Below are positions 3,530 to 17,972 of a stretch of 64,000 bases of DNA, piece after piece (the first letter of the stretch is position 1; the number at the start of each line of letters is the position of its first letter). A model generated the notes under the pieces. It was not told the DNA's origin. It was given only the letters and a program-made list of their open reading frames with translations, and ran no database searches. Both the position numbers and the translations under genes were made by a program. The DNA is from an uncultured delta proteobacterium. GTDB taxonomy: Bacteria > Myxococcota_A > Polyangia > Fen-1088. The DNA lies in contig CAVYGB010000002.1 of assembly GCA_963767925.1 (NCBI GenBank), forward strand, positions 1,984,001 through 2,048,000. The letters are read 5' to 3'.

Positions 3530-6500
3530 TCAAGGGCCGTCAACCGCCGCCGATTCGCGGGCGATCGGGAAGGCGGCCCCGATGGCCTTGTAAAAGGGCG
3601 GTGATTCGCGTCGGACGACGAGGTGCCCGCCCCAGCGTCGGACCAGGTCGCGCACGATGCCGAGCCCCCGGTCGCCGTCGCGGCGCTCGATGTCGTCGAG
3701 GGCGACGCTGGTGGGCGCCGAGTCGGCCACCAGGAAGGTGACCAGGCGCCGCCCCGCCGCGTCCTGCGTCTCCTCGACCCGCAGCAGGACACGCGGATCG
3801 GCGGCGCCCCCGGCGGCCACCACCGCGTTTCGAACCAGGTTGGCGACGATGGTCTCCAGCGCCGCCGGCGTGACGGGGAGGTCGACGTCCAGCGCGGCCA
3901 GGTGCAGGCCGGGCGTGACCGCCGCCGGCCGGCCGGTGCGCCCCGCCCGGTCGGCCACCGGCCGCAGCCAGCTCGCCACCGAGGCCGGGTCGAGCCGGGT
4001 GCGGGGCGCCGCCGCCAGCAACGCCGCCAGGGCCGGGCCGCGCTCCTCGCGCAGCTCGCGATCGAGCGCCAGCAGCTCGCGGTCGCCCGCCCGGCTGGCG
4101 CTGCCTGCGGCCAGCAGCGCCTCGGCCCGGGCCAGGGCGCCGTGCAGGGGACCGAACACCGGCTCGCGGGCCAGCGGGACCACCGCCACCCCCGCCGCCG
4201 CCGCCGCCCGGCGCAGCCGCTCGAAGGCGGTGGCCACCGCGGCCGAGGCCGGGCTGGGCTCGAGCAGGGCGCGCGCCACCTCGGACCTCGGGGCGTCGGG
4301 CGCGCTCAGCATGCCCAGCGCGCTCGCCCGGTGCTTGAGCACGTCGTGGCGGATCTCGGCCGCCGCCAGCGCCACCTCGGGGTACAGGTCGGGCAGGCGG
4401 GCCAGGGCCCGCGCCACCGATCGGCCACGCAGCCGGCGCGCCAGCAGGAGGGCGGCGATCAGCAAAAGCGCCCCCGCCGCCACGACCATCCCGGTCCGCA
4501 CCCGGGCCGCCTGGGCCACCTGCCGGTCCTCGGCCTGCGCGTGCCAGGTGGGCAGCGCCCGCGCCGCCTCCTCGCGCATTGGATCGTCGGCCCCGGTGGC
4601 GCGCAGGAAACGCTCGCCCGCCGCCACCGCCTCGTCCCAGCGCTCCTGCGCCGCTGCCTCCCGGGCCAGCGCCCAGTCCGCCGCAGGCACCCCGGCCGCG
4701 CGCGCGGTTTGCAGATCCGCGGCGAGGGCGCGGTCCGGGCCTGCCTCGGGCGGGCGGCGGGCGGCGAGGCGGGCGATGCGGTCGAGCGCGGTCCGGCGCT
4801 CGCCCTCCTTGCCCGCGGCCAGCGCCTTGCGGTGACAGTCGAGCGCGTCGGCGGTCCGCTCCTGGTACTCGGCGATGCGCCCGAGCTCGATCAGCCACTC
4901 GGTCGCCACCCCGGCCCGGCAGCGTCCCCCCAGCGTGCGGGCCGCCTCCTCGGGCCGGCCGGCCAGGAGCTGGCGGCGCGCCCAGGCCACCGGCGTCCCC
5001 TCGCGCAGGGTCGGCTCGAGGTTCGCGCGCAGGGCCCGCGCCTCGGCCAGCCGGGCCGGCTCCACCTGCGAGCCGACGTAGGCGGTGAGATCGGCGAGCG
5101 CCCCCGCGCTGTCCCCCTCGCCCGCGCGCAGGACCGCCCGCTCGAAGCGCGCCTCCACCGCCCCCAGCGCCACCGCCCGATCGAGCCAGGGCTCCACCAT
5201 GCGGAGCACGTCGTCGTCGTGGCGGATCTTCAGCAGCTCGGTGGCCAGCCGGGCCAGCCCCTCGCCGTCGCCCCACAGCGCCACCACCGTGGGCCGCCCG
5301 ATGGCCCCGCCGAGCGAGAACAGCGAGGCGGCCGCCTCGACGTAGCCGGGCGAGTCGGCCAGCGCCTGGGCCAGCGCGGTCTGGGCCATCGAGGGGACGT
5401 CGTGGGCGATCCAGCGCTGCGCCTCGGACAGGAGGGCCTGCGCCCGCGCCGACGGAGGGCGGCCGGCCCGGGGCGCCTGGCCGCTGCCGGCGGGCGCGAT
5501 CTTGCTGGCCAGCTTGCGGCGCACCTCGCGCAGGTCGTTCCAGGAGGGCTCGAGGGCCAGCGCCTTGCGCAGGGCCTCGTCGGCCCGGGCGGCCTCCAGG
5601 CTGCCGCCGTGCTCGGCGAGGATGGTGCCGAGCAGCCGCCAGGCGCCGGCGTGCGAGGGGCGGAGCTGCAGGAGCAGCAGCAGCTCGCGCCGGGCCTCGT
5701 CGTGGCGGGCCAGCGCCACCAGGGCCCGCGCCCGCAGGAACCGCGCCCCGCTGGCGGTGGGGTGCTGCTGCACGAGGCCCCCCGCCAGATCGAGCGTCAG
5801 CTCGGCGTGGCCATCCAGCAGGTGCTCGCCGGCCCGGCGCAGGGTGCTGGCCGCGGCCGGCGGCAGCGTGGCCTCCGGCCAGTCGGCCAGGGCCAGCGCG
5901 CGCTCGTCCTCCTCGATGGCCCGCAAGGTGTCGTTGGCCCGCTTGCGGAGCTGCAGGGCCAGGCCGGCGGCGGGGAGCTGCGCGATCCGGCGGCGCGCCT
6001 CGGCCAGCCGCCCCACCCCGCGCTCGAGCTCGGCGGCGGCGATCAGCACGCTGTAGCGGCCGTGGGGATCCTCGCGCAGGGCCAGCATGGCCCGGTCGAT
6101 GAACGTGAAGATCTCCTCGCGCCGCTGCCAGCGCTCGGGGCTGTCGGTCATCAGCTCCAGGAGGTTGACGTAGGCCAGCCAGCGGCGGGGATCGAGGGCG
6201 ATGGCCTGGCGGTACATCCCCTCCGCCTCCCGCCGGGCCCCCAGCTTGGCGAGGGCGAAGCCGAGGTCGTTGGCGATGTGGGCCTGCCGGGGATCGAGGG
6301 CGTGGGCCCGGCGCAGCAGCTCGACCGCCTCGCCCAGCTGGCCGGCGTGCAGCCGGGACTTGCCCGCCGCGTGGTCGCGCGCGGCCGCCGCCGGATCGGC
6401 GGTCGGCTCGGCGGGGGCGGTCGGCGCTTGTGTCGCGGGCGCTGAGGGAGCTGCCGGCGCCGCCGCCGGTCCCGCGTCGGGCGGCGGCTGCCAGGCGGCC

Positions 6501-10420: not shown

Positions 10421-10564
10421 GGCGTTCAGCGGCGGGCAACCGAGGGAGCGGAGCGACTGAGGTGCTCGTCCGACTGCAACGCCTCAGCTGGGCGGGAAAT
10501 GAGGACGCAACGGTGGAGGCAAGCGACCTGACTGACGCGAGAAATGCGCCCCTGAACCTGAGGA

Positions 10565-11155
10565 TTAAACCCGTTCCCCAGTCGGCTTGCTTTGCCCGTG
10601 GAACTGGCTGTCGTTCCTTCTTGGAATGCCATCGACACGCTCGAAAATCAATTGTCCGATCGCGATGTCGGGATGGAGCATTATGTCGTGCAAACCAAAA
10701 TTCATTATTTCAAAGGTGATGGTACCCGTGAATCCGGCATGGATCGTGGGTGCCGTGAAGTGAATCAAAAGACCACATCGAGCGAATGAGCTTCTTCCTT
10801 CCACACGGGCAGCAATCGCGGGTCGTCCGTCCCGGATCGGAAGGGTAAGGGTCTCGACGGTATTTCCAAGCAAGAACTGCTGCGGCTTGAGCGCATATCC
10901 GCCGTCGCCATCCATTGTGACCTGTTTATAAATTTGACCGAGCAATTTCGGTAGTCCCCGACTTCGAAGGTCGAACGCGATGGGGCTCTTTTCTTTGCAA
11001 ATGCTCAGCGTCGGACCTAGTCGGATATTGACGGCGGTTGTGTCGTACGGCGAGTCTGGTTGCCCAAGAGAAGCGAATCTGGGGCGAGGCTCTGGATCGA
11101 TGAGGATGTCACCCTCGTCAATCGCGCGGTGAATCTCGACGTTTGACAGCACCAT
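10565..11155 (-). CDS. dcd: dCTP deaminase (trimeric dUTPase-fold family)
   Basis: MVLSNVEI start, VEGRSSFARCGL, TAPTIHAGFTGTITFEIMN, IGQLIFE; low-GC codon usage. Confidence 0.92.
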   Translation of the reverse strand: MVLSNVEIHRAIDEGDILIDPEPRPRFASLGQPDSPYDTTAVNIRLGPTLSICKEKSPIAFDLRSRGLPKLLGQIYKQVTMDGDGGYALKPQQFLLGNTVETLTLPIRDGRPAIAARVEGRSSFARCGLLIHFTAPTIHAGFTGTITFEIMNFGLHDIMLHPDIAIGQLIFERVDGIPRRNDSQFHGQSKPTGERV

Positions 11156-11157
11156 TG

Positions 11158-11415
11158 CTAGCGACCCGTCATGGCGTCTTTAGGGATTCTGGCGGTGGAC
11201 ATACCACCCTGAGATGGAACCTGGATGAGCGCGTTCCTTTCGTCCTCATCTAGCAACGTCACACTCAGAAGCTTTCGGCCTTCGTCAATCTGACCAGCAG
11301 TTACGAAAGCCGATACTTCCTCGCCCTCAGACGTTTTGAAGAAAACGGTCCTCTCGCTGGGAAACAACCCCTCCTCAACCCTCACTTTCAACCACCTTCT
11401 CTCCAGAGTCATCAT
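11158..11415 (-). CDS. Small hypothetical protein coupled to dcd
   Basis: GAGGAGG RBS, MMTLERRW start, stop 2 bp before the dcd ATG, same low GC. Confidence 0.75.
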   Translation of the reverse strand: MMTLERRWLKVRVEEGLFPSERTVFFKTSEGEEVSAFVTAGQIDEGRKLLSVTLLDEDERNALIQVPSQGGMSTARIPKDAMTGR

Positions 11416-11608
11416 CGATGGTCCTCCTCTGGCAGCGGTCAGCCACCCTGTAGCGTGAAGGTGCACTCGTCGGATCCGTCTGACTTCGACGGCCAGAGTA
11501 ATCTGGACAAAAGTTCAGGTCAAGGTTCCGCGAAAGATCAAGGGCCACCACGCAGGATGGTCGCATCGCTGGGCTTGACTTTCGTTCCGGAGGAACCGGG
11601 GTTGGCGT

Positions 11609-12175
11609 GTGCCGCCCAACGTTCCGCTTGGCGGCGCGGCCCTGGTGTCGTGGCTCCTCGCCGGCGGGACGGCCTGCCGGGAACCGGTGCGTGACGGCTT
11701 CCCGGCCTCGCTCGACCGGCGGTGTCCCGACGGCTTCGCGCTGCAAGGGGATCGCTGCTACCGGACGCCATCCGCGTCGCAGGCCCAGGACGCCGCCGCC
11801 GCTAATCCCGGCGCAGGCGGAGATGCCGCTGCGGGGCCGCCGCCGGGGACAGGCGGCGCCGATGCGCCCGCCGGCGCAGGGCCGCCGCCACCAGAAGCGG
11901 CGACCCTGGACGCGGCCGCCGAGCACGCCGCCGCCGACGTCGCCGGGGCGGCCGCCGATCCCCCGACCCCTGTGGGGGGGGCGCGTGCCTCGACGAGGTC
12001 GTACAGGTCGTCGCGGCCCCCAGCCATGCCTGCGCCCGGCGATCCGATGGATCGGTGTTCCGCTGAACTGCGGAGGGCCCCCGCCCCGCCGCGCGCGGCC
12101 GCTACTTCGATGCGGTGGCGGTGGCGCCGAGGTTCTGCAGGCGGGCCAGGTCGACCTTGCCGGCGGCCTCCTTGA
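11609..12175 (+). CDS. Putative lipoprotein with a Cys motif and Ala/Pro-rich tail (3' end uncertain)
   Basis: LLAGGTAC lipobox-like, CPDGFALQGDRC; 3' end overlaps the convergent gene. Confidence 0.4.
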   Translation: MPPNVPLGGAALVSWLLAGGTACREPVRDGFPASLDRRCPDGFALQGDRCYRTPSASQAQDAAAANPGAGGDAAAGPPPGTGGADAPAGAGPPPPEAATLDAAAEHAAADVAGAAADPPTPVGGARASTRSYRSSRPPAMPAPGDPMDRCSAELRRAPAPPRAAATSMRWRWRRGSAGGPGRPCRRPP

Positions 12176-12887
12176 CCGCCTCCATCGACACGCCGTTGCC
12201 TTCCGCCTCGACCATGAAGCGGCTGCCGACGATCACCCGCACCTCGCCGTGTTTGTTGCGGCTGTCCCACTTCTCGAGGGCCTTGTTGCCCGCCAGCGTG
12301 GTCGTGCGCTCGTAGCCATGATCGGTCTCCTTGTCGATGTCGACCGCGGCGAGCCCCATCCCGGCCAGGGCCAGGCTGCCGATCCCGGCCATGTCGATGA
12401 TCTTCAGCGTCAGGCGCGTGCCGCCTTCGCCCTCGTATTTGCCCTCCGCGTGGGAAGCGCCCATGCCGAGCGCGGCGTTCTTCTCGCCGGTGGCGCTGAC
12501 CCGCTTGAGCCCGCCGAGCGTCTCGGGCAACAGCGTCTTCAGCGCGCGGAAGTCGACGAGCGTCGTCTTGGCCGCGCCGGTCAGCCCGCTGATCGCCGCG
12601 GTGGCCGCCTGCATCCCGGCCGCCGCCGCCTGCATGCCCAGCGCCGCGCCTTGCGCCCCCAGCGCCGCACCCTGCGCCCCGAGCGCGCCGCCCTCCTTGC
12701 CCAGCCGGGCGGCGCTCTCCGCCATCTGCGCCTCGGCCTTGGCGAGCTGCGCCTGCGCGAGGTTCGCATGCTCCCTGGCCAGCTCGAGCTGCGCTTGCGC
12801 TGCCTCCGCCTGCTTGTCCACCTCCGACTTGCAGGCCGTGGCTCCTCCGACACAGAGCCCCAGCAACGCTGCGTAGATCCGTCTCAT
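12102..12887 (-). CDS. Lipoprotein: coiled coil plus a globular domain resembling the C-terminal domain of some bacterial Yip1-family proteins
   Basis: GGATAC lipobox; LKTLLPETLGGLKR...KETDHGYERT...RFMVEAEG. Confidence 0.7.
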   Translation of the reverse strand: MRRIYAALLGLCVGGATACKSEVDKQAEAAQAQLELAREHANLAQAQLAKAEAQMAESAARLGKEGGALGAQGAALGAQGAALGMQAAAAGMQAATAAISGLTGAAKTTLVDFRALKTLLPETLGGLKRVSATGEKNAALGMGASHAEGKYEGEGGTRLTLKIIDMAGIGSLALAGMGLAAVDIDKETDHGYERTTTLAGNKALEKWDSRNKHGEVRVIVGSRFMVEAEGNGVSMEAVKEAAGKVDLARLQNLGATATASK

Positions 12888-13076
12888 GTATGCACGCCTC
12901 CGCCTCCGATATTGTCCGACCGCCGCCTCAGGGCAAGCCGCGATGGTCACACCTCCGAGATCGTTGGCAGACTGGGCGCGCGCCGCGCAGGCCGAGGTGG
13001 CGCGCGGCAGGTGGCGCCCGCGCCATCACGGGGAGTCGGTAGGGTCGCGACGCGGAAAACCGCCGGCACAACCCGG

Positions 13077-13700
13077 TTGACGTCCGGTAGTGGGGCCCCT
13101 ATCGTCGCGAGGATTCGCAACCGACACCTCAAAGAGCTGGTGCGTACCGCTGCGGCGCTGCCCGGACCGAAACTGGACATCCCGCTGTGGGCCTCGCTTC
13201 GAGCCATCGATCTCGGGACCGCGCCTTCTCCCGTGACACCAGCGGGCGAATCGGGCGGAGCTTTGCCGCCCGTCCCGGCTGACGTCCTGAGGGAGATCGC
13301 CGCCTTGCGCGGGCTGGTCTCCCATTGCCTGCAGCGGCTGTCGGCCCGGATCGAGGACAAGCTCGGCGCCGCGCTGGCCGAGGCGCGCCGGGCCTGGGAC
13401 CAGGCCGACAGCGTCACCATCGTCGACGCCGACCTCGGTCGGACGCTCGGCGACGCGCGCCGCAAGCTGGGCGCCGCTGCCGCCGCCACCGGGCCGGAAC
13501 GGCGCGCGCTGGCCGCGGTCGGGCTCGAAGGGCTGCTGGCGCTCGAGGCAGCCTGTGGCCTCACCACTTTGGCCGAGCGGCGGCTCTCGTCGGTCATTCG
13601 CCTGCGCCTGCGCGCGCAGGACGAGGACCTCTTGCCCGGGGGACGCCCCTTTCTCGATCTGAGCGCAGCATTTGCGGAGGCGGCACGCGCATGGGGTTGA
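13077..13700 (+). CDS. Hypothetical helical protein, first gene of the MotA/MotB-like operon
   Basis: Protein-like 3' part of ORF 11607-13700; stop overlaps ATG 13691; TTG start inferred. Confidence 0.55.
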   Translation: MTSGSGAPIVARIRNRHLKELVRTAAALPGPKLDIPLWASLRAIDLGTAPSPVTPAGESGGALPPVPADVLREIAALRGLVSHCLQRLSARIEDKLGAALAEARRAWDQADSVTIVDADLGRTLGDARRKLGAAAAATGPERRALAAVGLEGLLALEAACGLTTLAERRLSSVIRLRLRAQDEDLLPGGRPFLDLSAAFAEAARAWG

Positions 13701-15847
13701 GCAGGATTCGCTGGATTCTCTCGGGCGCGATCGGCGTGCTGACGCTCGTCGCCACGGTGCAGGCCCTGCGCACCTACCTGGCACACGACCTCACGGTCGG
13801 TGTGCTGTCGGTGCTGGCGCTGGCCATCACCCTGCTGGTGGGGCTCGGCAGCCTGTTCTGGGCCCGCCGCCGCATCGAGCACGAGCTGGTCGCCCTCAAG
13901 CTGCCGCCGGCGAACACTCCATCGATCGCCGCCGCGTCCGATGCAGCGAGCGGCGACGCCCCCGCCGAGGCGGGCGGCGCGACCCCGACCGAGGCCAGCG
14001 TGGTGGTCAGCGGCGAGGTCGCAACCGAGGTCGCGGTGATGTCCAGCGGCGCCGCCCGAGAGACCGCCGTCGGGGCGCCCCCCCGCGAGGTGTCCCCGCC
14101 CATCGCCCCCCGTCCCGCCAGCGTCCTGCTGCGCGAGCGGCGCGAGCGCCTGCTGGCCATCCGGGCCTCCGGTGTGCGCCCCGATCGTCAGGTGCTGGCC
14201 GAGGCCACCGCCGCCGACGAGGCCGGGCGGGCTTATATCGGCCGCTACTTCGTCGCCACCACCGTCCTCATCGGGCTGGTCGGGACCTTCGCCGGCCTGA
14301 TGGCCACCCTCAGCAAGGTCGCCCCCCTCCTCCACGAGAAGGAAGCGGGCGGCCTGGCCCTGCTGGCCGCGCCGCTGGCCGGCCTGCACGTCACCTTCGG
14401 CGCCAGCCTGGTGGCCATCCTGGCCACCCTCGCGCTGGCTCTGGCCCAGGGCGATCTCGCCCTGCACGAGGAGCAGGCCCTGGCCGCCCTCGAGGACCGC
14501 ACCACCCACCACCTGATCCCCGAGCTTTGGCCGCCCAGCGAGGAGCCGGCCGAGCGAACCGTGCGGGCGATGGCCGACATGAAGACCTTGCTCGCCGAGG
14601 CGGTCGCCCAGTCGCTGGAGAAGAGCGCCGCCCGCATGGCCGAGACCGCCCGGGGTGAGTCAGAGCGCGCGGCCCAGGCCCTCGAGACGACCGCCCGCAC
14701 CGTCGAGCGGCAGATCAGCCAGCTCGGCGCCACCGTCGGCGGCGCCCTCGAGGCGACCGCGGCCAGCGTCGAGAAGCAGCTCACCAAGCTCGGGACCTCG
14801 GTGGGCGGCGTCCTGCAGACCAGCGCCGGCACGGTCGAGCACCAGATGACCCAGCTCTACGCCACCGTGCGCTCGGCCCTCGAGGCCAGCGCCAGCTCGG
14901 TGGAAAAGCAGATGACCCAGCTCAGCACCGCGATGGGCGGCACGCTCGAGGCCAGCGCCGGTTCGGTGGAAAAGCAGATGACCCAGCTCAGCTCCGCGGT
15001 GGGCGGCACGCTCGAGTCGAGCGCGAGCTCGGTGGAAAAGCAGATGGCCCAGCTCAGCGCCGCCGTGGCTGAGGCGCTCGAGGCCAGCGCCGGCTCGGTG
15101 GAGAAGCAGATGACCCAGCTCAGCGCCGCGGTGGGCGGGGCGCTCGAGGCGGCCACCACGCGGCACAACGCCGCCATGGCCGAGTCCGCCGCGGCCGCCG
15201 CCCGGCACGTGAGCGAGGCCGCCGAGGAGTCCGTGCGCCGCTCGACCGCCCTGGCCGAGGAGGCGGTGCGCACCACCACCACCGAGCTCGCCCGCACCTT
15301 GCAGCCGATGCTGGCCGCCGAGGCGCAGCGGCTGGAGGTGATCAAGGAGGCCTTCGGCCAGAGCGTGAGCGGCATCCAGCAGGCCACCGAGCGGCTCGCC
15401 GAGCTGCAGGGCGTGCTCGAGGGGACCGCCCGCGCCCAGGCCGCCGCCATCGAGAGCGCCGGGCAAGCGGTCATGGGCGCCTTCGACAAGACGGTGGTGG
15501 GGGCGGGCGCCTCTCTCGACGGCGCCGCCACCAAGCTGGCGGGCGCCGCCCAGCAGCTCAGCACCGGCTTCGAGACCTTCGGCCCCCGCATCGCCACTCT
15601 CTCCACCGAGCTGAGCGCCCTCGGGCGCGAGCTGGCTCTGCAGTCGGCCCGGGGTCCCGAGGGGGATCTCGGGGCGGTCGTGCTCGGCGAGCTCGAGCGG
15701 ATCGGCGCCGGGCTGGACCGTCTGGCCCAGCTGCAGCGGCTGGGCAGCGGCGCGGCCGGGGTGGGGGCCCCGCCGGCGGCCGAGCTGGGGGCGTCTCCGT
15801 CGGCCGAGTCCTTCGGGGCCGACGCGACGGAAGAGACGCATTCGTGA
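13691..15847 (+). CDS. MotA/TolQ/ExbB (ZorA-like) ion-channel subunit with a long repetitive helical tail
   Basis: Two N-terminal TMs; channel helices LIGLVGTFAGL and PLAGLHVTFGASL; about 430-aa C-terminal tail with 22-aa repeats. Confidence 0.85.
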   Translation: MGLSRIRWILSGAIGVLTLVATVQALRTYLAHDLTVGVLSVLALAITLLVGLGSLFWARRRIEHELVALKLPPANTPSIAAASDAASGDAPAEAGGATPTEASVVVSGEVATEVAVMSSGAARETAVGAPPREVSPPIAPRPASVLLRERRERLLAIRASGVRPDRQVLAEATAADEAGRAYIGRYFVATTVLIGLVGTFAGLMATLSKVAPLLHEKEAGGLALLAAPLAGLHVTFGASLVAILATLALALAQGDLALHEEQALAALEDRTTHHLIPELWPPSEEPAERTVRAMADMKTLLAEAVAQSLEKSAARMAETARGESERAAQALETTARTVERQISQLGATVGGALEATAASVEKQLTKLGTSVGGVLQTSAGTVEHQMTQLYATVRSALEASASSVEKQMTQLSTAMGGTLEASAGSVEKQMTQLSSAVGGTLESSASSVEKQMAQLSAAVAEALEASAGSVEKQMTQLSAAVGGALEAATTRHNAAMAESAAAAARHVSEAAEESVRRSTALAEEAVRTTTTELARTLQPMLAAEAQRLEVIKEAFGQSVSGIQQATERLAELQGVLEGTARAQAAAIESAGQAVMGAFDKTVVGAGASLDGAATKLAGAAQQLSTGFETFGPRIATLSTELSALGRELALQSARGPEGDLGAVVLGELERIGAGLDRLAQLQRLGSGAAGVGAPPAAELGASPSAESFGADATEETHS
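14678..15139 (+). repeat. Seven in-frame 66-bp (22-aa) tandem repeats
   Basis: Consensus ALEASAGSVEKQMTQLSAAVGG. Confidence 0.9.
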
Positions 15848-16476
15848 TCCGTCGGGTCCGCCGCAGCCCACTCTTCCCGGTCAACGTCTGGCCCCCGCTC
15901 GTCGACGCCCTCACCATGGTGCTGGCGGCCTTCGTGCTGCTGATCCTGGTGGCCCTGGTGGCCCAGCGTGGGCTGCTCGGGCGCCTGCGCGAGCGGGACC
16001 ATGAGCTGACCCAGCTCCGCGAGGAGAAGGCCCGCATCGAGCGGCGCCTGCGCGCGCTGGCCCCCCAGTCGGCCATCACGGTCGACGACGGCAAGGTCAT
16101 CTTGCAGGGTGAGGTGCTGTTCGCCACCGGCTCGGACGCCCTCACGCCCGAGGGCGACGCCCTGACGGCCGACATGGGCAGCAAGCTCGCCTCGCTGCTG
16201 GCGGCCGAGCCGGGCCAGATGGTCCTGGTGGGCGGTCACACCGACGACCGCCAGATCCACGGCGGCCGCTTCCGGTCGAACTGGGAGCTGTCGTCGGCCC
16301 GGGCCCTGGCCGTGGCCCACGTGTTGACCCGGGCGGGGGTGCCGCCCGATCGGGTCGTCGCCTCCGGCTTCGGCGAGCACCACCCGCGCGCCGACAACCT
16401 CGACGAGCCCGGCCGGGCCAAGAACCGCCGCATCGAGGTGCTGGTGGTCCCCATCCACGCGGTGTCGTCGCGATGA
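15844..16476 (+). CDS. MotB/ZorB-like OmpA-domain protein
   Basis: TM with Asp (VWPPLVDALT); GHTDD, NWELSSARA, GFGE, KNRRIE; GTGA overlap with the upstream gene. Confidence 0.9.
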   Translation: MIRRVRRSPLFPVNVWPPLVDALTMVLAAFVLLILVALVAQRGLLGRLRERDHELTQLREEKARIERRLRALAPQSAITVDDGKVILQGEVLFATGSDALTPEGDALTADMGSKLASLLAAEPGQMVLVGGHTDDRQIHGGRFRSNWELSSARALAVAHVLTRAGVPPDRVVASGFGEHHPRADNLDEPGRAKNRRIEVLVVPIHAVSSR

Positions 16477-17015
16477 CCGCCGCCGACGCCCCCGCAGCCG
16501 AGGTCCCCGCGCCCGACGCTCCCGCCGAGGTCGAGCTTCCGCCCGTCGCCGATCCGGCCGACGACCACGCCACGCTGGCCCGGGCCCTGTTCCGGCACGC
16601 GCTGGCGGCGTTCAAGGTGGTGCCCGAGGAGGCGCGCGGGCTGGCCCTGACCGCCCTCGATCGCTTCATCGCCAATCCGGGGCCGGCCGCCTTCGTGGCC
16701 GCGGTGCGCGAGCTGCGCGATACCCGGCGCCGCGTGCTCATCGCCCAGTTCGGCGGGGGCACCTTGCGCCGCGCCCTCAGCGGCGGCATCGCGGCCCTGC
16801 GCCGGGTGCCAGGGCTTCCGTCCGCGGTGGCCGATCGCCTGGCCGCCGACCTGCCCCTCGACGCCCTCACCGGGCAGCGGCTGTTCGCCCTCGTCGCGCT
16901 CTCGCGCACCTACGAGGCGCTGGCCGGCCGGGTGGCCGCCGACACCGAGGACATGCGCCGCCGCTACCAGGCCGCCCCGCCCCGCAAGCGCCGCCCCCCG
17001 CGCGACCGCTTCTGA
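16473..17015 (+). CDS. Hypothetical helical protein, last gene of the operon
   Basis: ATGA overlap with the OmpA gene; host-like codon usage. Confidence 0.7.
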   Translation: MTAADAPAAEVPAPDAPAEVELPPVADPADDHATLARALFRHALAAFKVVPEEARGLALTALDRFIANPGPAAFVAAVRELRDTRRRVLIAQFGGGTLRRALSGGIAALRRVPGLPSAVADRLAADLPLDALTGQRLFALVALSRTYEALAGRVAADTEDMRRRYQAAPPRKRRPPRDRF

Positions 17016-17063: not shown

Positions 17064-17972
17064 TCAGCGGCAGGGCGGGAGGTAGTTGTCGAAGCGGAGG
17101 CTGTAGACCACGACCTGGTTGGCGGTGTTGCCGACGAAGTCGAAGATCGTCGCGCCCCGCACGACGTCAGCCAGGGTGACCCGCGGCCGCCCCAGGCCCG
17201 GCACGAAGGTCCAGTCCTCGGGCTGGAAGCGGGCGGAGAGCGTCTTCGTCTCGCCCCCGGTCGCCGGCAGCTTCACCACGTGCTGATCGCCGCCGTGGGG
17301 CTGGATCCCGCCGCGCATCTGCACGTGCAGGTCGGCGGTGGCGCTGTAGCGGATGGTGAAGCCCTTCGACATCGTGAGGTTCGCGGTCATCGCCTCGTTG
17401 TTGGCGATGGGGACCACCACCTCGCTCCAGGGCCCGCCGGGAAAGCGAACCTTGGCGACGTATTGATCGCCCTCCCGGACCAGCAAGCTGCCGGTGGCGG
17501 GCACCGTGTTGGCGTGGGCCTGCCACTGCTGCAAGCGGCCGATCGAGGGGGTGGGGCACTCGGTGAGCGGCCCGCCGCCAAAGCCGTCGGAGGGAACCGC
17601 CGCCGACACGTCGCTGGCGCCCGCGTCGGCCGTCCGGGCTCGATCCGCGCCAGAGGCGGCGTCCCGGGGACGCCCGTCGGGCGTCCGGCCATCGGCTCGC
17701 CCCGCGTCGGCCCGGGCGCTGCCACCCGAGCCACCCGACGGCGCGCTGCCGCCGCTGCCGGAAGATCCACCGCTGCCACCGCCGCCGCCGCTGCCCGCCA
17801 CCGGGCTGCCGCCCGAGCCGCTCTGTCCACCGGACCCCGCCGGCGCGCCGGCCTGTCCGCCGGTGCCAGCCGTGTTGCCACCGGTGGGCGGGTTGCCCGA
17901 CGAGCCGGGCGCCTCCGCGGTGCAGGCGACGGCGAGCGAAAGCAGGAGACTCAAGGGCAAGACGCGCTTCAT
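17064..17972 (-). CDS. Lipoprotein with a Gly/Ser linker and a beta-rich C-terminal domain
   Basis: LSLAVAC lipobox, GGAGG RBS, GSGG repeats. Confidence 0.75.
   Translation of the reverse strand: MKRVLPLSLLLSLAVACTAEAPGSSGNPPTGGNTAGTGGQAGAPAGSGGQSGSGGSPVAGSGGGGGSGGSSGSGGSAPSGGSGGSARADAGRADGRTPDGRPRDAASGADRARTADAGASDVSAAVPSDGFGGGPLTECPTPSIGRLQQWQAHANTVPATGSLLVREGDQYVAKVRFPGGPWSEVVVPIANNEAMTANLTMSKGFTIRYSATADLHVQMRGGIQPHGGDQHVVKLPATGGETKTLSARFQPEDWTFVPGLGRPRVTLADVVRGATIFDFVGNTANQVVVYSLRFDNYLPPCR

Follow-up and report, generated by a model that had tools for sequence, protein, structure and literature searches.

We examined a plus-strand operon at positions 13077-17015 of a 64,000-nucleotide stretch of DNA (the window) from an uncultured delta proteobacterium (Myxococcota_A; Polyangia; assembly GCA_963767925.1, contig CAVYGB010000002.1, positions 1,984,001 to 2,048,000). 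The operon consists of four overlapping genes, designated g1 to g4, in which a motor-like channel subunit (g2) and a peptidoglycan-binding partner (g3) are flanked by two small proteins (Table 1). The core pair is a distant relative of the ZorA/ZorB pair of type III Zorya, and the flanking proteins resemble no known family. The initial annotation of the locus had described overlapping genes; the overlaps are 10 nucleotides (g1/g2), 4 nucleotides (g2/g3) and 4 nucleotides (g3/g4), and the G+C content at the three codon positions follows a pattern that fits coding in all four frames. Genes on the minus strand lie on either side (12102-12950 and 17064-17972), and the operon is therefore self-contained.

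Table 1. Features of the four-gene operon and of the region upstream of it, in window coordinates
Feature	Position	Strand	Description
g1	13077 (TTG)-13700	+	Upstream flanker, 207 amino acids, open reading frame (ORF) call
g2	13691 (ATG)-15847	+	ZorA3-like channel subunit, 718 amino acids, ORF call
g3	15844 (GTG)-16476	+	ZorB3-like subunit, 210 amino acids, ORF call
g4	16473 (ATG)-17015	+	Downstream flanker, 180 amino acids, ORF call
MotA/ExbB-type core of g2	14246-14467	+	Residues 186-259; GLVGTFAG at residues 195-202
Cytoplasmic helical tail of g2 (predicted)	14558-15844	+	About residues 290-718 (about 430 amino acids); isoelectric point (pI) 4.9
Tandem repeat in g2 tail	14678-15150	+	66-bp (22-residue) unit, 7.2 copies, 77% matches
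OmpA-type peptidoglycan-binding domain of g3	16117-16428	+	Residues 92-195; Pfam OmpA, E 4.7e-17
Sigma-70-like promoter match	13077-13105	+	TTGACG, 17 nucleotides, TATCGT; 1 site against 0.0 expected in shuffles
dCTP-deaminase-like gene	10565-11155	-	196 amino acids; Pfam DCD 5e-28; dCTP deaminases in the PDB 6e-15
ORF	11158-11466	-	102 amino acids; no match

The arrangement corresponds to a published one. In the available sections of Payne et al. 2021 (PMC8565338), type III Zorya is defined by a zorA-zorB pair with the gene of a DUF3348 protein on one side and that of a DUF2894 protein on the other, and a type III system from Stenotrophomonas protected Escherichia coli from phage. The initial annotation had treated the architecture as new, with ZorC, ZorD and ZorE as the only partners of such a pair. 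This part of the proposal did not hold; the layout is that of type III, and it was present in six type III loci from betaproteobacterial plasmids, which served as our canonical comparison set. The order in the annotated Ralstonia, Variovorax and Caballeronia loci is DUF3348, DUF802, OmpA and DUF2894; it was taken from annotation in three of the six loci (L001, L082 and L083) and obtained by ORF assignment in the other three (L002, L084 and L085).

The g3 protein has an N-terminal transmembrane (TM) helix containing Asp21 in the motif WPPLVDA, a residue invariant in all 14 aligned sequences, and its OmpA-type domain carries the motif NWELS at residue 146. The best PADLOC model was ZorB3 (E 2.6e-43, 146 bits, residues 14-205 of 210), against 56 bits or less for ZorB1 or ZorB2, and g3 shares 36-39% identity over the full length with all six canonical ZorB3 proteins. 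Among NCBIfam models the best was NF006547 (139.6 bits). This model represents the canonical ZorB3 family, because the Ralstonia ZorB3 scores 396.7 bits against its cut-off of 194. The MotB, MotD and MotS models of NCBIfam gave 41-102 bits, with cut-offs of 250-312 bits. In sequence comparisons with solved structures, the OmpA domain of g3 resembled those of MotB, PomB and TssL (best E 3.2e-17).

The g2 protein has two pairs of hydrophobic segments (residues 8-59 and 186-259), of which the second holds the GLVGT motif reported in the initial annotation, followed by the long tail also described there. The top three PADLOC models for g2 were all ZorA3 (E 1.7e-16, 3.5e-14 and 1.1e-8), with ZorA1 and ZorA2 at E 6e-8 or higher. 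When a profile of the g2 family (27 sequences) was aligned with the six canonical ZorA3 proteins by hhalign, the match had a probability of 98% and an E-value of 1.8e-13 over 328 columns, taking in the two TM pairs as well as the beginning of the tail and pairing GLVGTFAG of g2 with GMLGTLLG of canonical ZorA3. The Pfam family MotA_ExbB (PF01618) was not found in g2 at E<=1, nor was it matched by the canonical Ralstonia ZorA3, and no MotA, TolQ or ExbB model of NCBIfam matched g2. The tail gave an Apolipoprotein-type repeat match in Pfam. Among the 27 family members (g2 and 26 orthologues), its length ranged from 235 to 772 residues (median 425) and its pI from 4.4 to 5.4, which suggests that gain and loss of repeats tune the length of the ZorA-like tail.

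Taking into account the PADLOC results, the 36-39% identity of g3 and the profile match of g2, we conclude that g2 and g3 are a distant relative of ZorA3/ZorB3 and do not belong with the flagellar, Tol or Exb pairs. The Zorya-like core proposed initially was therefore supported, and all the motifs named in the initial annotation are present. Would the pair instead be a housekeeping stator or energiser (flagellar MotAB, TolQR or ExbBD) that happens to lie between two unrelated small genes? The resemblance of the OmpA domain to those of MotB, PomB and TssL speaks for this, and some homologues are named 'flagellar motor protein MotB' in their sources. On the other side, g2 lacks a match to the corresponding Pfam and NCBIfam families and g3 falls far under every NCBIfam MotB cut-off. 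A tail as long as that of g2 is not known from the MotAB, TolQR and ExbBD families, which also counts against such a pair. A Pfam scan of 14 neighbouring ORFs revealed no flagellar, Tol, helicase or HNH domains, in agreement with the initial annotation, and the flankers are inherited together with g2 and g3, as described below. A housekeeping pair is in our judgement very improbable.

The distribution of the operon was then examined. A genome scan, which was pattern-based and can miss loci, gave 79 loci, 36 of which (L003-L038) carry a g3 orthologue with 55-83% identity. All 36 are from Myxococcota-type metagenome-assembled genomes and none is from a named cultured species. In 35 of them g3 is immediately followed by an ORF of the g4 family, two of these matches being weak (L035, E 1e-8; L036, E 1.4e-6); the one locus without it, L038, breaks off within g3. 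An ORF of the g2 family precedes g3 in 34 of the 36 loci; the hidden Markov model (HMM) used was built from the same sequences for 26 of these 34, and tblastn with g2 alone finds 28 loci. Upstream of g2, an ORF of the g1 family was present in 26 of the 36 loci, that is, in every locus with a complete g2. Eight of the ten loci without g1 are cut by a contig end, and the other two are L035 (1573-2714) and L036 (6391-9070), which have the most distant g3 proteins (54-57% identity) and a weak g4-like ORF. Neither g1 nor g2 is recognisable in them, and the ORF upstream of g3 in L036 is a different one, of 498 residues. These two loci may represent a further variant of the module. The remaining 43 loci of the scan (L039-L081), which were searched for bridging lineages, contained only OmpA-domain proteins, with one weak ZorA-like fragment in L069 (E 7.7e-5). 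Co-occurrence of the flankers with the pair had been chosen beforehand as a test of the initial proposal, and these counts bear it out. The four genes are inherited together, and they share their order and a homologous core pair with type III.

These results also bear on whether the flankers are genes at all. The window has a G+C content of 73% and contains many spurious long ORFs, and g1 and g4 could be chance ORFs beside a two-gene pair. Against this, the codon-position pattern fits the g1 and g4 frames, both occur at the same positions in other genomes, both gave confident AlphaFold2 (AF2) models, and both belong to protein families with conserved columns. Relatives of g1 numbered 135 in a word-based search, 119 of the 120 listed being without a Pfam domain; relatives of g4 numbered 19 in a word-based search and 112 cluster representatives in a full profile search. 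The chance-ORF explanation is refuted by this conservation at the protein level, and we assign it next to no likelihood. As for the start of g1, the TTG at 13077 is the sole canonical in-frame start in 13011-13140, and close homologues of g1 begin with 'LT' at the same place. The promoter-like match listed in Table 1 coincides with this start codon, which is a caveat on the g1 start. Either the start is real and the promoter match is due to chance, or both signals overlap; the significance of the promoter is uncertain.

We next consider what kind of proteins the flankers are. Both are small and helical, as had been predicted. The g1 protein is basic (pI 9.7), and its all-helical AF2 model (predicted local distance difference test (pLDDT) 81.4) has helices at residues 68-103, 118-135, 140-179 and 193-206. 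The hydropathy profile has one borderline window at residues 144-162 (1.69 against a threshold of 1.6) inside a helix of the predicted bundle, and g1 is probably soluble. The g4 protein is very basic (pI 10.8) and helical (AF2 pLDDT 91.2), with a disordered N-terminus, a basic C-terminal tail (PPRKRRPPRDRF) and no TM-like segment by hydropathy. At E<=1, neither protein matched a family in Pfam, PADLOC or NCBIfam, and these databases revealed no recognisable catalytic domain in either. Foldseek searches of both models against the PDB gave no match at E<=0.001 and returned only generic helical bundles; the g4 model had no match at E<=0.001 in BFVD, and look-alikes for g1 and g4 in the ESM Atlas gave no usable match. 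FliG, the rotor partner of MotA, was a candidate for the g1 family. Weak Pfam matches to FliG_M were present in 4 of 90 relatives (best E 0.041), Foldseek gave no FliG, and the matches are probably noise.

A relationship to the accessory proteins of type III was searched for in several ways. We scanned 90 members of the g1 family singly against Pfam, and DUF3348 was not among the 25 families listed (7 further unlisted families had one member each at most, best E >0.21). Likewise, DUF2894 was not among the 25 families listed for 93 members of the g4 family (18 further unlisted single-member families, best E >0.13). With hhalign, g1 against six DUF3348 proteins gave E 0.3 and g4 against six DUF2894 proteins gave E 0.14; the swapped pairings and g1 against g4 gave no match either, all comparisons together lying at E 0.14-0.4. 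The canonical profiles are shallow, with six betaproteobacterial sequences each, and a very remote relation could escape them. No E-value below 0.18 was obtained when g1 and g4 were each compared by pairwise BLASTP with the six canonical DUF3348 and the six canonical DUF2894 proteins, and HMMs built from these canonical proteins had no match at E<=1 in any of the 36 Myxococcota loci. As a positive control, the Ralstonia flankers matched Pfam DUF3348 at 2e-90 and DUF2894 at 2e-62. When terminal consensus motifs were compared by eye, only the basic tail of the downstream flanker was common to both groups. In the course of these comparisons, we noticed that the PADLOC-DB v2 models PDLC00652-00658, tried on L001:3115-3852 and L001:6599-7255, label DUF3348 'ZorG3' and DUF2894 'ZorF3', the reverse of the naming in the available text of Payne et al. 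2021 (DUF3348 as ZorF and DUF2894 as ZorG; PMC8565338).

Judged from these comparisons, the flankers would have been either replaced or diverged beyond recognition relative to the DUF3348 and DUF2894 proteins. Orthologous flankers may have diverged too far to be detected, because the B subunits of the two groups are only 36-39% identical and the profiles are shallow. Within both groups, the B subunit is the most conserved component and the flankers the least. Compared with the window, the Myxococcota loci show identities of 54-82% for g3, 36-68% for g1 and 33-64% for g4; among the betaproteobacteria, compared with Ralstonia, the values are 71-84% for ZorB3, 49-65% for DUF3348 and 46-60% for DUF2894. 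The reading that both accessory genes were replaced by unrelated helical proteins, giving a fourth Zorya-type system restricted to Myxococcota, is tentative and to our minds rather unlikely. The initial annotation had called the two partners unknown; this stands insofar as g1 and g4 are not detectably DUF3348 or DUF2894 proteins, and the layout with two small flankers had already been published. As a whole, the initial interpretation holds for the Zorya-like core and the unrecognised flankers, and had overstated the novelty of the architecture.

How the four proteins might work together can be outlined by homology to ZorAB as described in the available part of PMC11946911. The g2 and g3 proteins would form a ZorA5B2-type (5:2) complex in the inner membrane, anchored to peptidoglycan by the OmpA domain of g3. 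Proton flow past Asp21 of g3 would drive g2, together with its tail of about 430 residues built on 22-residue repeats, around g3, and the tail may hand the signal to cytoplasmic partners, g1 and g4. From the structure of the operon and the physical properties of its products, g1 and g4 would be small basic helical proteins that read or regulate the acidic tail, in the positions held by the DUF3348 and DUF2894 proteins in type III. A putative stoichiometric association of the flankers with the tail would fit the close translational coupling of the genes, their co-inheritance and the opposite charges. The machine may sense perturbation of the envelope by phage and bring about an anti-phage response. 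No nuclease or other recognisable effector was found in the operon with Pfam, PADLOC or Foldseek against the PDB, as in canonical type III. On balance we lean, if only slightly, towards this reading of the operon as a relative of type III Zorya in the Myxococcota lineage that would act as an envelope sensor of phage. The defence role, which we infer from the nearest characterised relatives, is its weakest step.

The surroundings of the operon in other genomes are of importance in judging that role. The genes next to the operon in the window are kept in only 1 of the 36 loci (L003), and the only recurrent neighbour family is that of Ser/Thr kinases (5 of the 36 loci and the window); as the initial annotation had expected, the pair does not sit in conserved core synteny. 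The scan of neighbouring ORFs covered the 112 of 152 that are no more than 4 kb from the cassette. These comprise a mixture of housekeeping, metabolic and regulatory genes, and no integrase or transposase was found among them. Because the outer neighbours are not conserved and the neighbouring ORFs are heterogeneous, the cassette is an autonomous four-gene module, outside both conserved core synteny and defence islands.

The same machine might serve a purpose other than defence. It would then be an ion-driven device, specific to the lineage of Polyangia-type Myxococcota, that senses or maintains the envelope, for example in envelope stress, cell-wall remodelling or surface motility, with the flankers as cytoplasmic adaptors. 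The ordinary character of the neighbouring genes, the lack of mobile-element genes among them and the lack of a specific defence system nearby (PADLOC, 112 neighbour ORFs) would agree with this, as would an operon without a recognisable effector and the strong conservation of g3, whose best 120 database matches are all at least 61% identical. Moreover, the canonical cassette itself, present in 135 Ralstonia megaplasmid records (L001 and 134 further), lies among ordinary metabolic genes and not in defence islands in the loci inspected. On the contrary, the closest characterised relatives are Zorya systems, of which type III is reported to be phage-protective in the available sections of PMC8565338. 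A core function of the phylum is disfavoured because, in a scan that can miss loci, none of the 36 loci came from a named cultured myxobacterium, and the outer synteny is not conserved. We regard a non-defence role as possible but doubtful.

Several observations weigh against reading the operon as a defence system related to type III. The support for defence by type III in the available text of PMC8565338 is one heterologous experiment. The cassette does not lie in defence islands; only 8 of the 112 neighbouring ORFs had a PADLOC match at E<=1e-10, and in each case a generic domain was responsible (Ser/Thr kinase, ABC ATPase, helicase, MerR or permease). The identity of g3 across the 36 loci (55-83%) is high for a defence gene. 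As for the relationship itself, the ZorA3 match of g2 is much weaker than that of the canonical control (>960 bits), the DUF802 repeat of canonical ZorA3 was not found in g2 with Pfam, and g3 scores below the NF006547 cut-off. No solved ZorA or ZorB chain was among the PDB sequence matches, and g1 and g4 have no detectable similarity to DUF3348 or DUF2894 proteins in comparisons in which the controls behaved as expected.

The gene content of the window resembles that of Myxococcota and includes genes for a sigma-54 activator, a Ser/Thr kinase and a TonB protein; Rfam and transfer RNA scans of the window gave no matches. An open frame of 946 codons at 3605-6445 on the plus strand has an odd codon-position G+C content (0.96 at the first and 0.84 at the third position) and is without a Pfam match; it codes for a low-complexity protein, if it is a gene at all. 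An islet of low G+C content (about 50-60%, compared with the window mean of 73%) at 10500-11500, 1.9 kb upstream of the cassette, contains two minus-strand ORFs (Table 1) and looks horizontally acquired.

Type III is the least understood type of Zorya and has no recognisable effector. In the literature searched, we found no account of how its two small proteins work and no paper linking Zorya to a myxobacterial system; PMC12505986, in its available part, describes no such system. The operon described here provides a second, independent pair of flankers around a homologous motor, in the same order and with the same size class, helical character and charge pattern, and comparing the two pairs is a natural way to ask which of the partners' properties are important. 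The family is sizeable, as the numbers of g1 and g4 relatives and of Myxococcota loci given above indicate, and defence annotation probably undercounts such systems in Myxococcota, because the Pfam and PADLOC models for the accessory proteins of type III do not pick up the family. If the accessory genes were truly replaced, the tail-bearing motor would be a portable sensor module that accepts interchangeable pairs of non-enzymatic partners. Its output would then be produced without any nuclease, for example through direct action of the tail and its partners on membrane energetics or a host process.

We finally compared the operon with known systems. With MotAB/PomAB and TolQR/ExbBD it shares an ion-channel core with a GxxGT-type motif in TM3 and a B subunit with a TM Asp; the OmpA-type domain of g3 is a feature of MotB and PomB. 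Unlike MotAB, TolQR and ExbBD, it has a long tail and two small partners of its own, and lies outside any flagellar or Tol context; g2 was not recognised as MotA_ExbB, and g3 reaches no MotB, TolR or ExbD family cut-off. The types I and II of Zorya, whose ZorAB motor mechanism (with ZorC/ZorD or ZorE) is described in PMC11946911 and PMC11890865, likewise combine a MotA-like subunit bearing a long cytoplasmic tail with a MotB-like subunit bearing a TM Asp and a peptidoglycan-binding domain, and the 5:2 motor mechanism would be common to both. The PADLOC scores of g2 and g3 with type I and II models were much weaker than with those of type III. ZorC, ZorD and ZorE had no PADLOC match among the four operon proteins, to which this run was confined, and a Pfam scan of these proteins revealed neither a helicase nor an HNH domain.

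The resemblance to type III is closer. Both systems have co-oriented genes in the order small protein, ZorA, ZorB and small protein, with similar sizes (207, 718, 210 and 180 residues in the window; 246, 698, 215 and 219 in the Ralstonia type III system), and the core pairs are homologous, g2 to ZorA3 and g3 to ZorB3. The ZorA tail is acidic and repeat-rich in both (pI 4.4-5.4 in 27 Myxococcota proteins and 5.0-5.1 in the six canonical ones), the downstream flanker is basic (median pI 11.5 for 93 g4-family proteins, 8.2-10.1 for the canonical ones) and ends in a basic tail rich in Pro, Arg and Lys, and neither system has a nuclease or helicase. They differ in that g2 has 22-residue repeats in place of the Pfam DUF802 repeat, g3 lies under the NCBIfam cut-off for canonical ZorB3, and the host belongs to Myxococcota, not Pseudomonadota. 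Above all, a DUF3348 (PF11828) protein upstream of zorA and a DUF2894 (PF11445) protein downstream of zorB were not found, their places being held by g1 and g4. The operon has the ZorA3-type subunit, the ZorB3-type subunit and the gene order of type III; we advise against classifying it as type III Zorya, since these two defining components were tested for and not found. Our best reading is that it is a Myxococcota-specific relative of type III Zorya, with both accessory proteins belonging to undescribed families.

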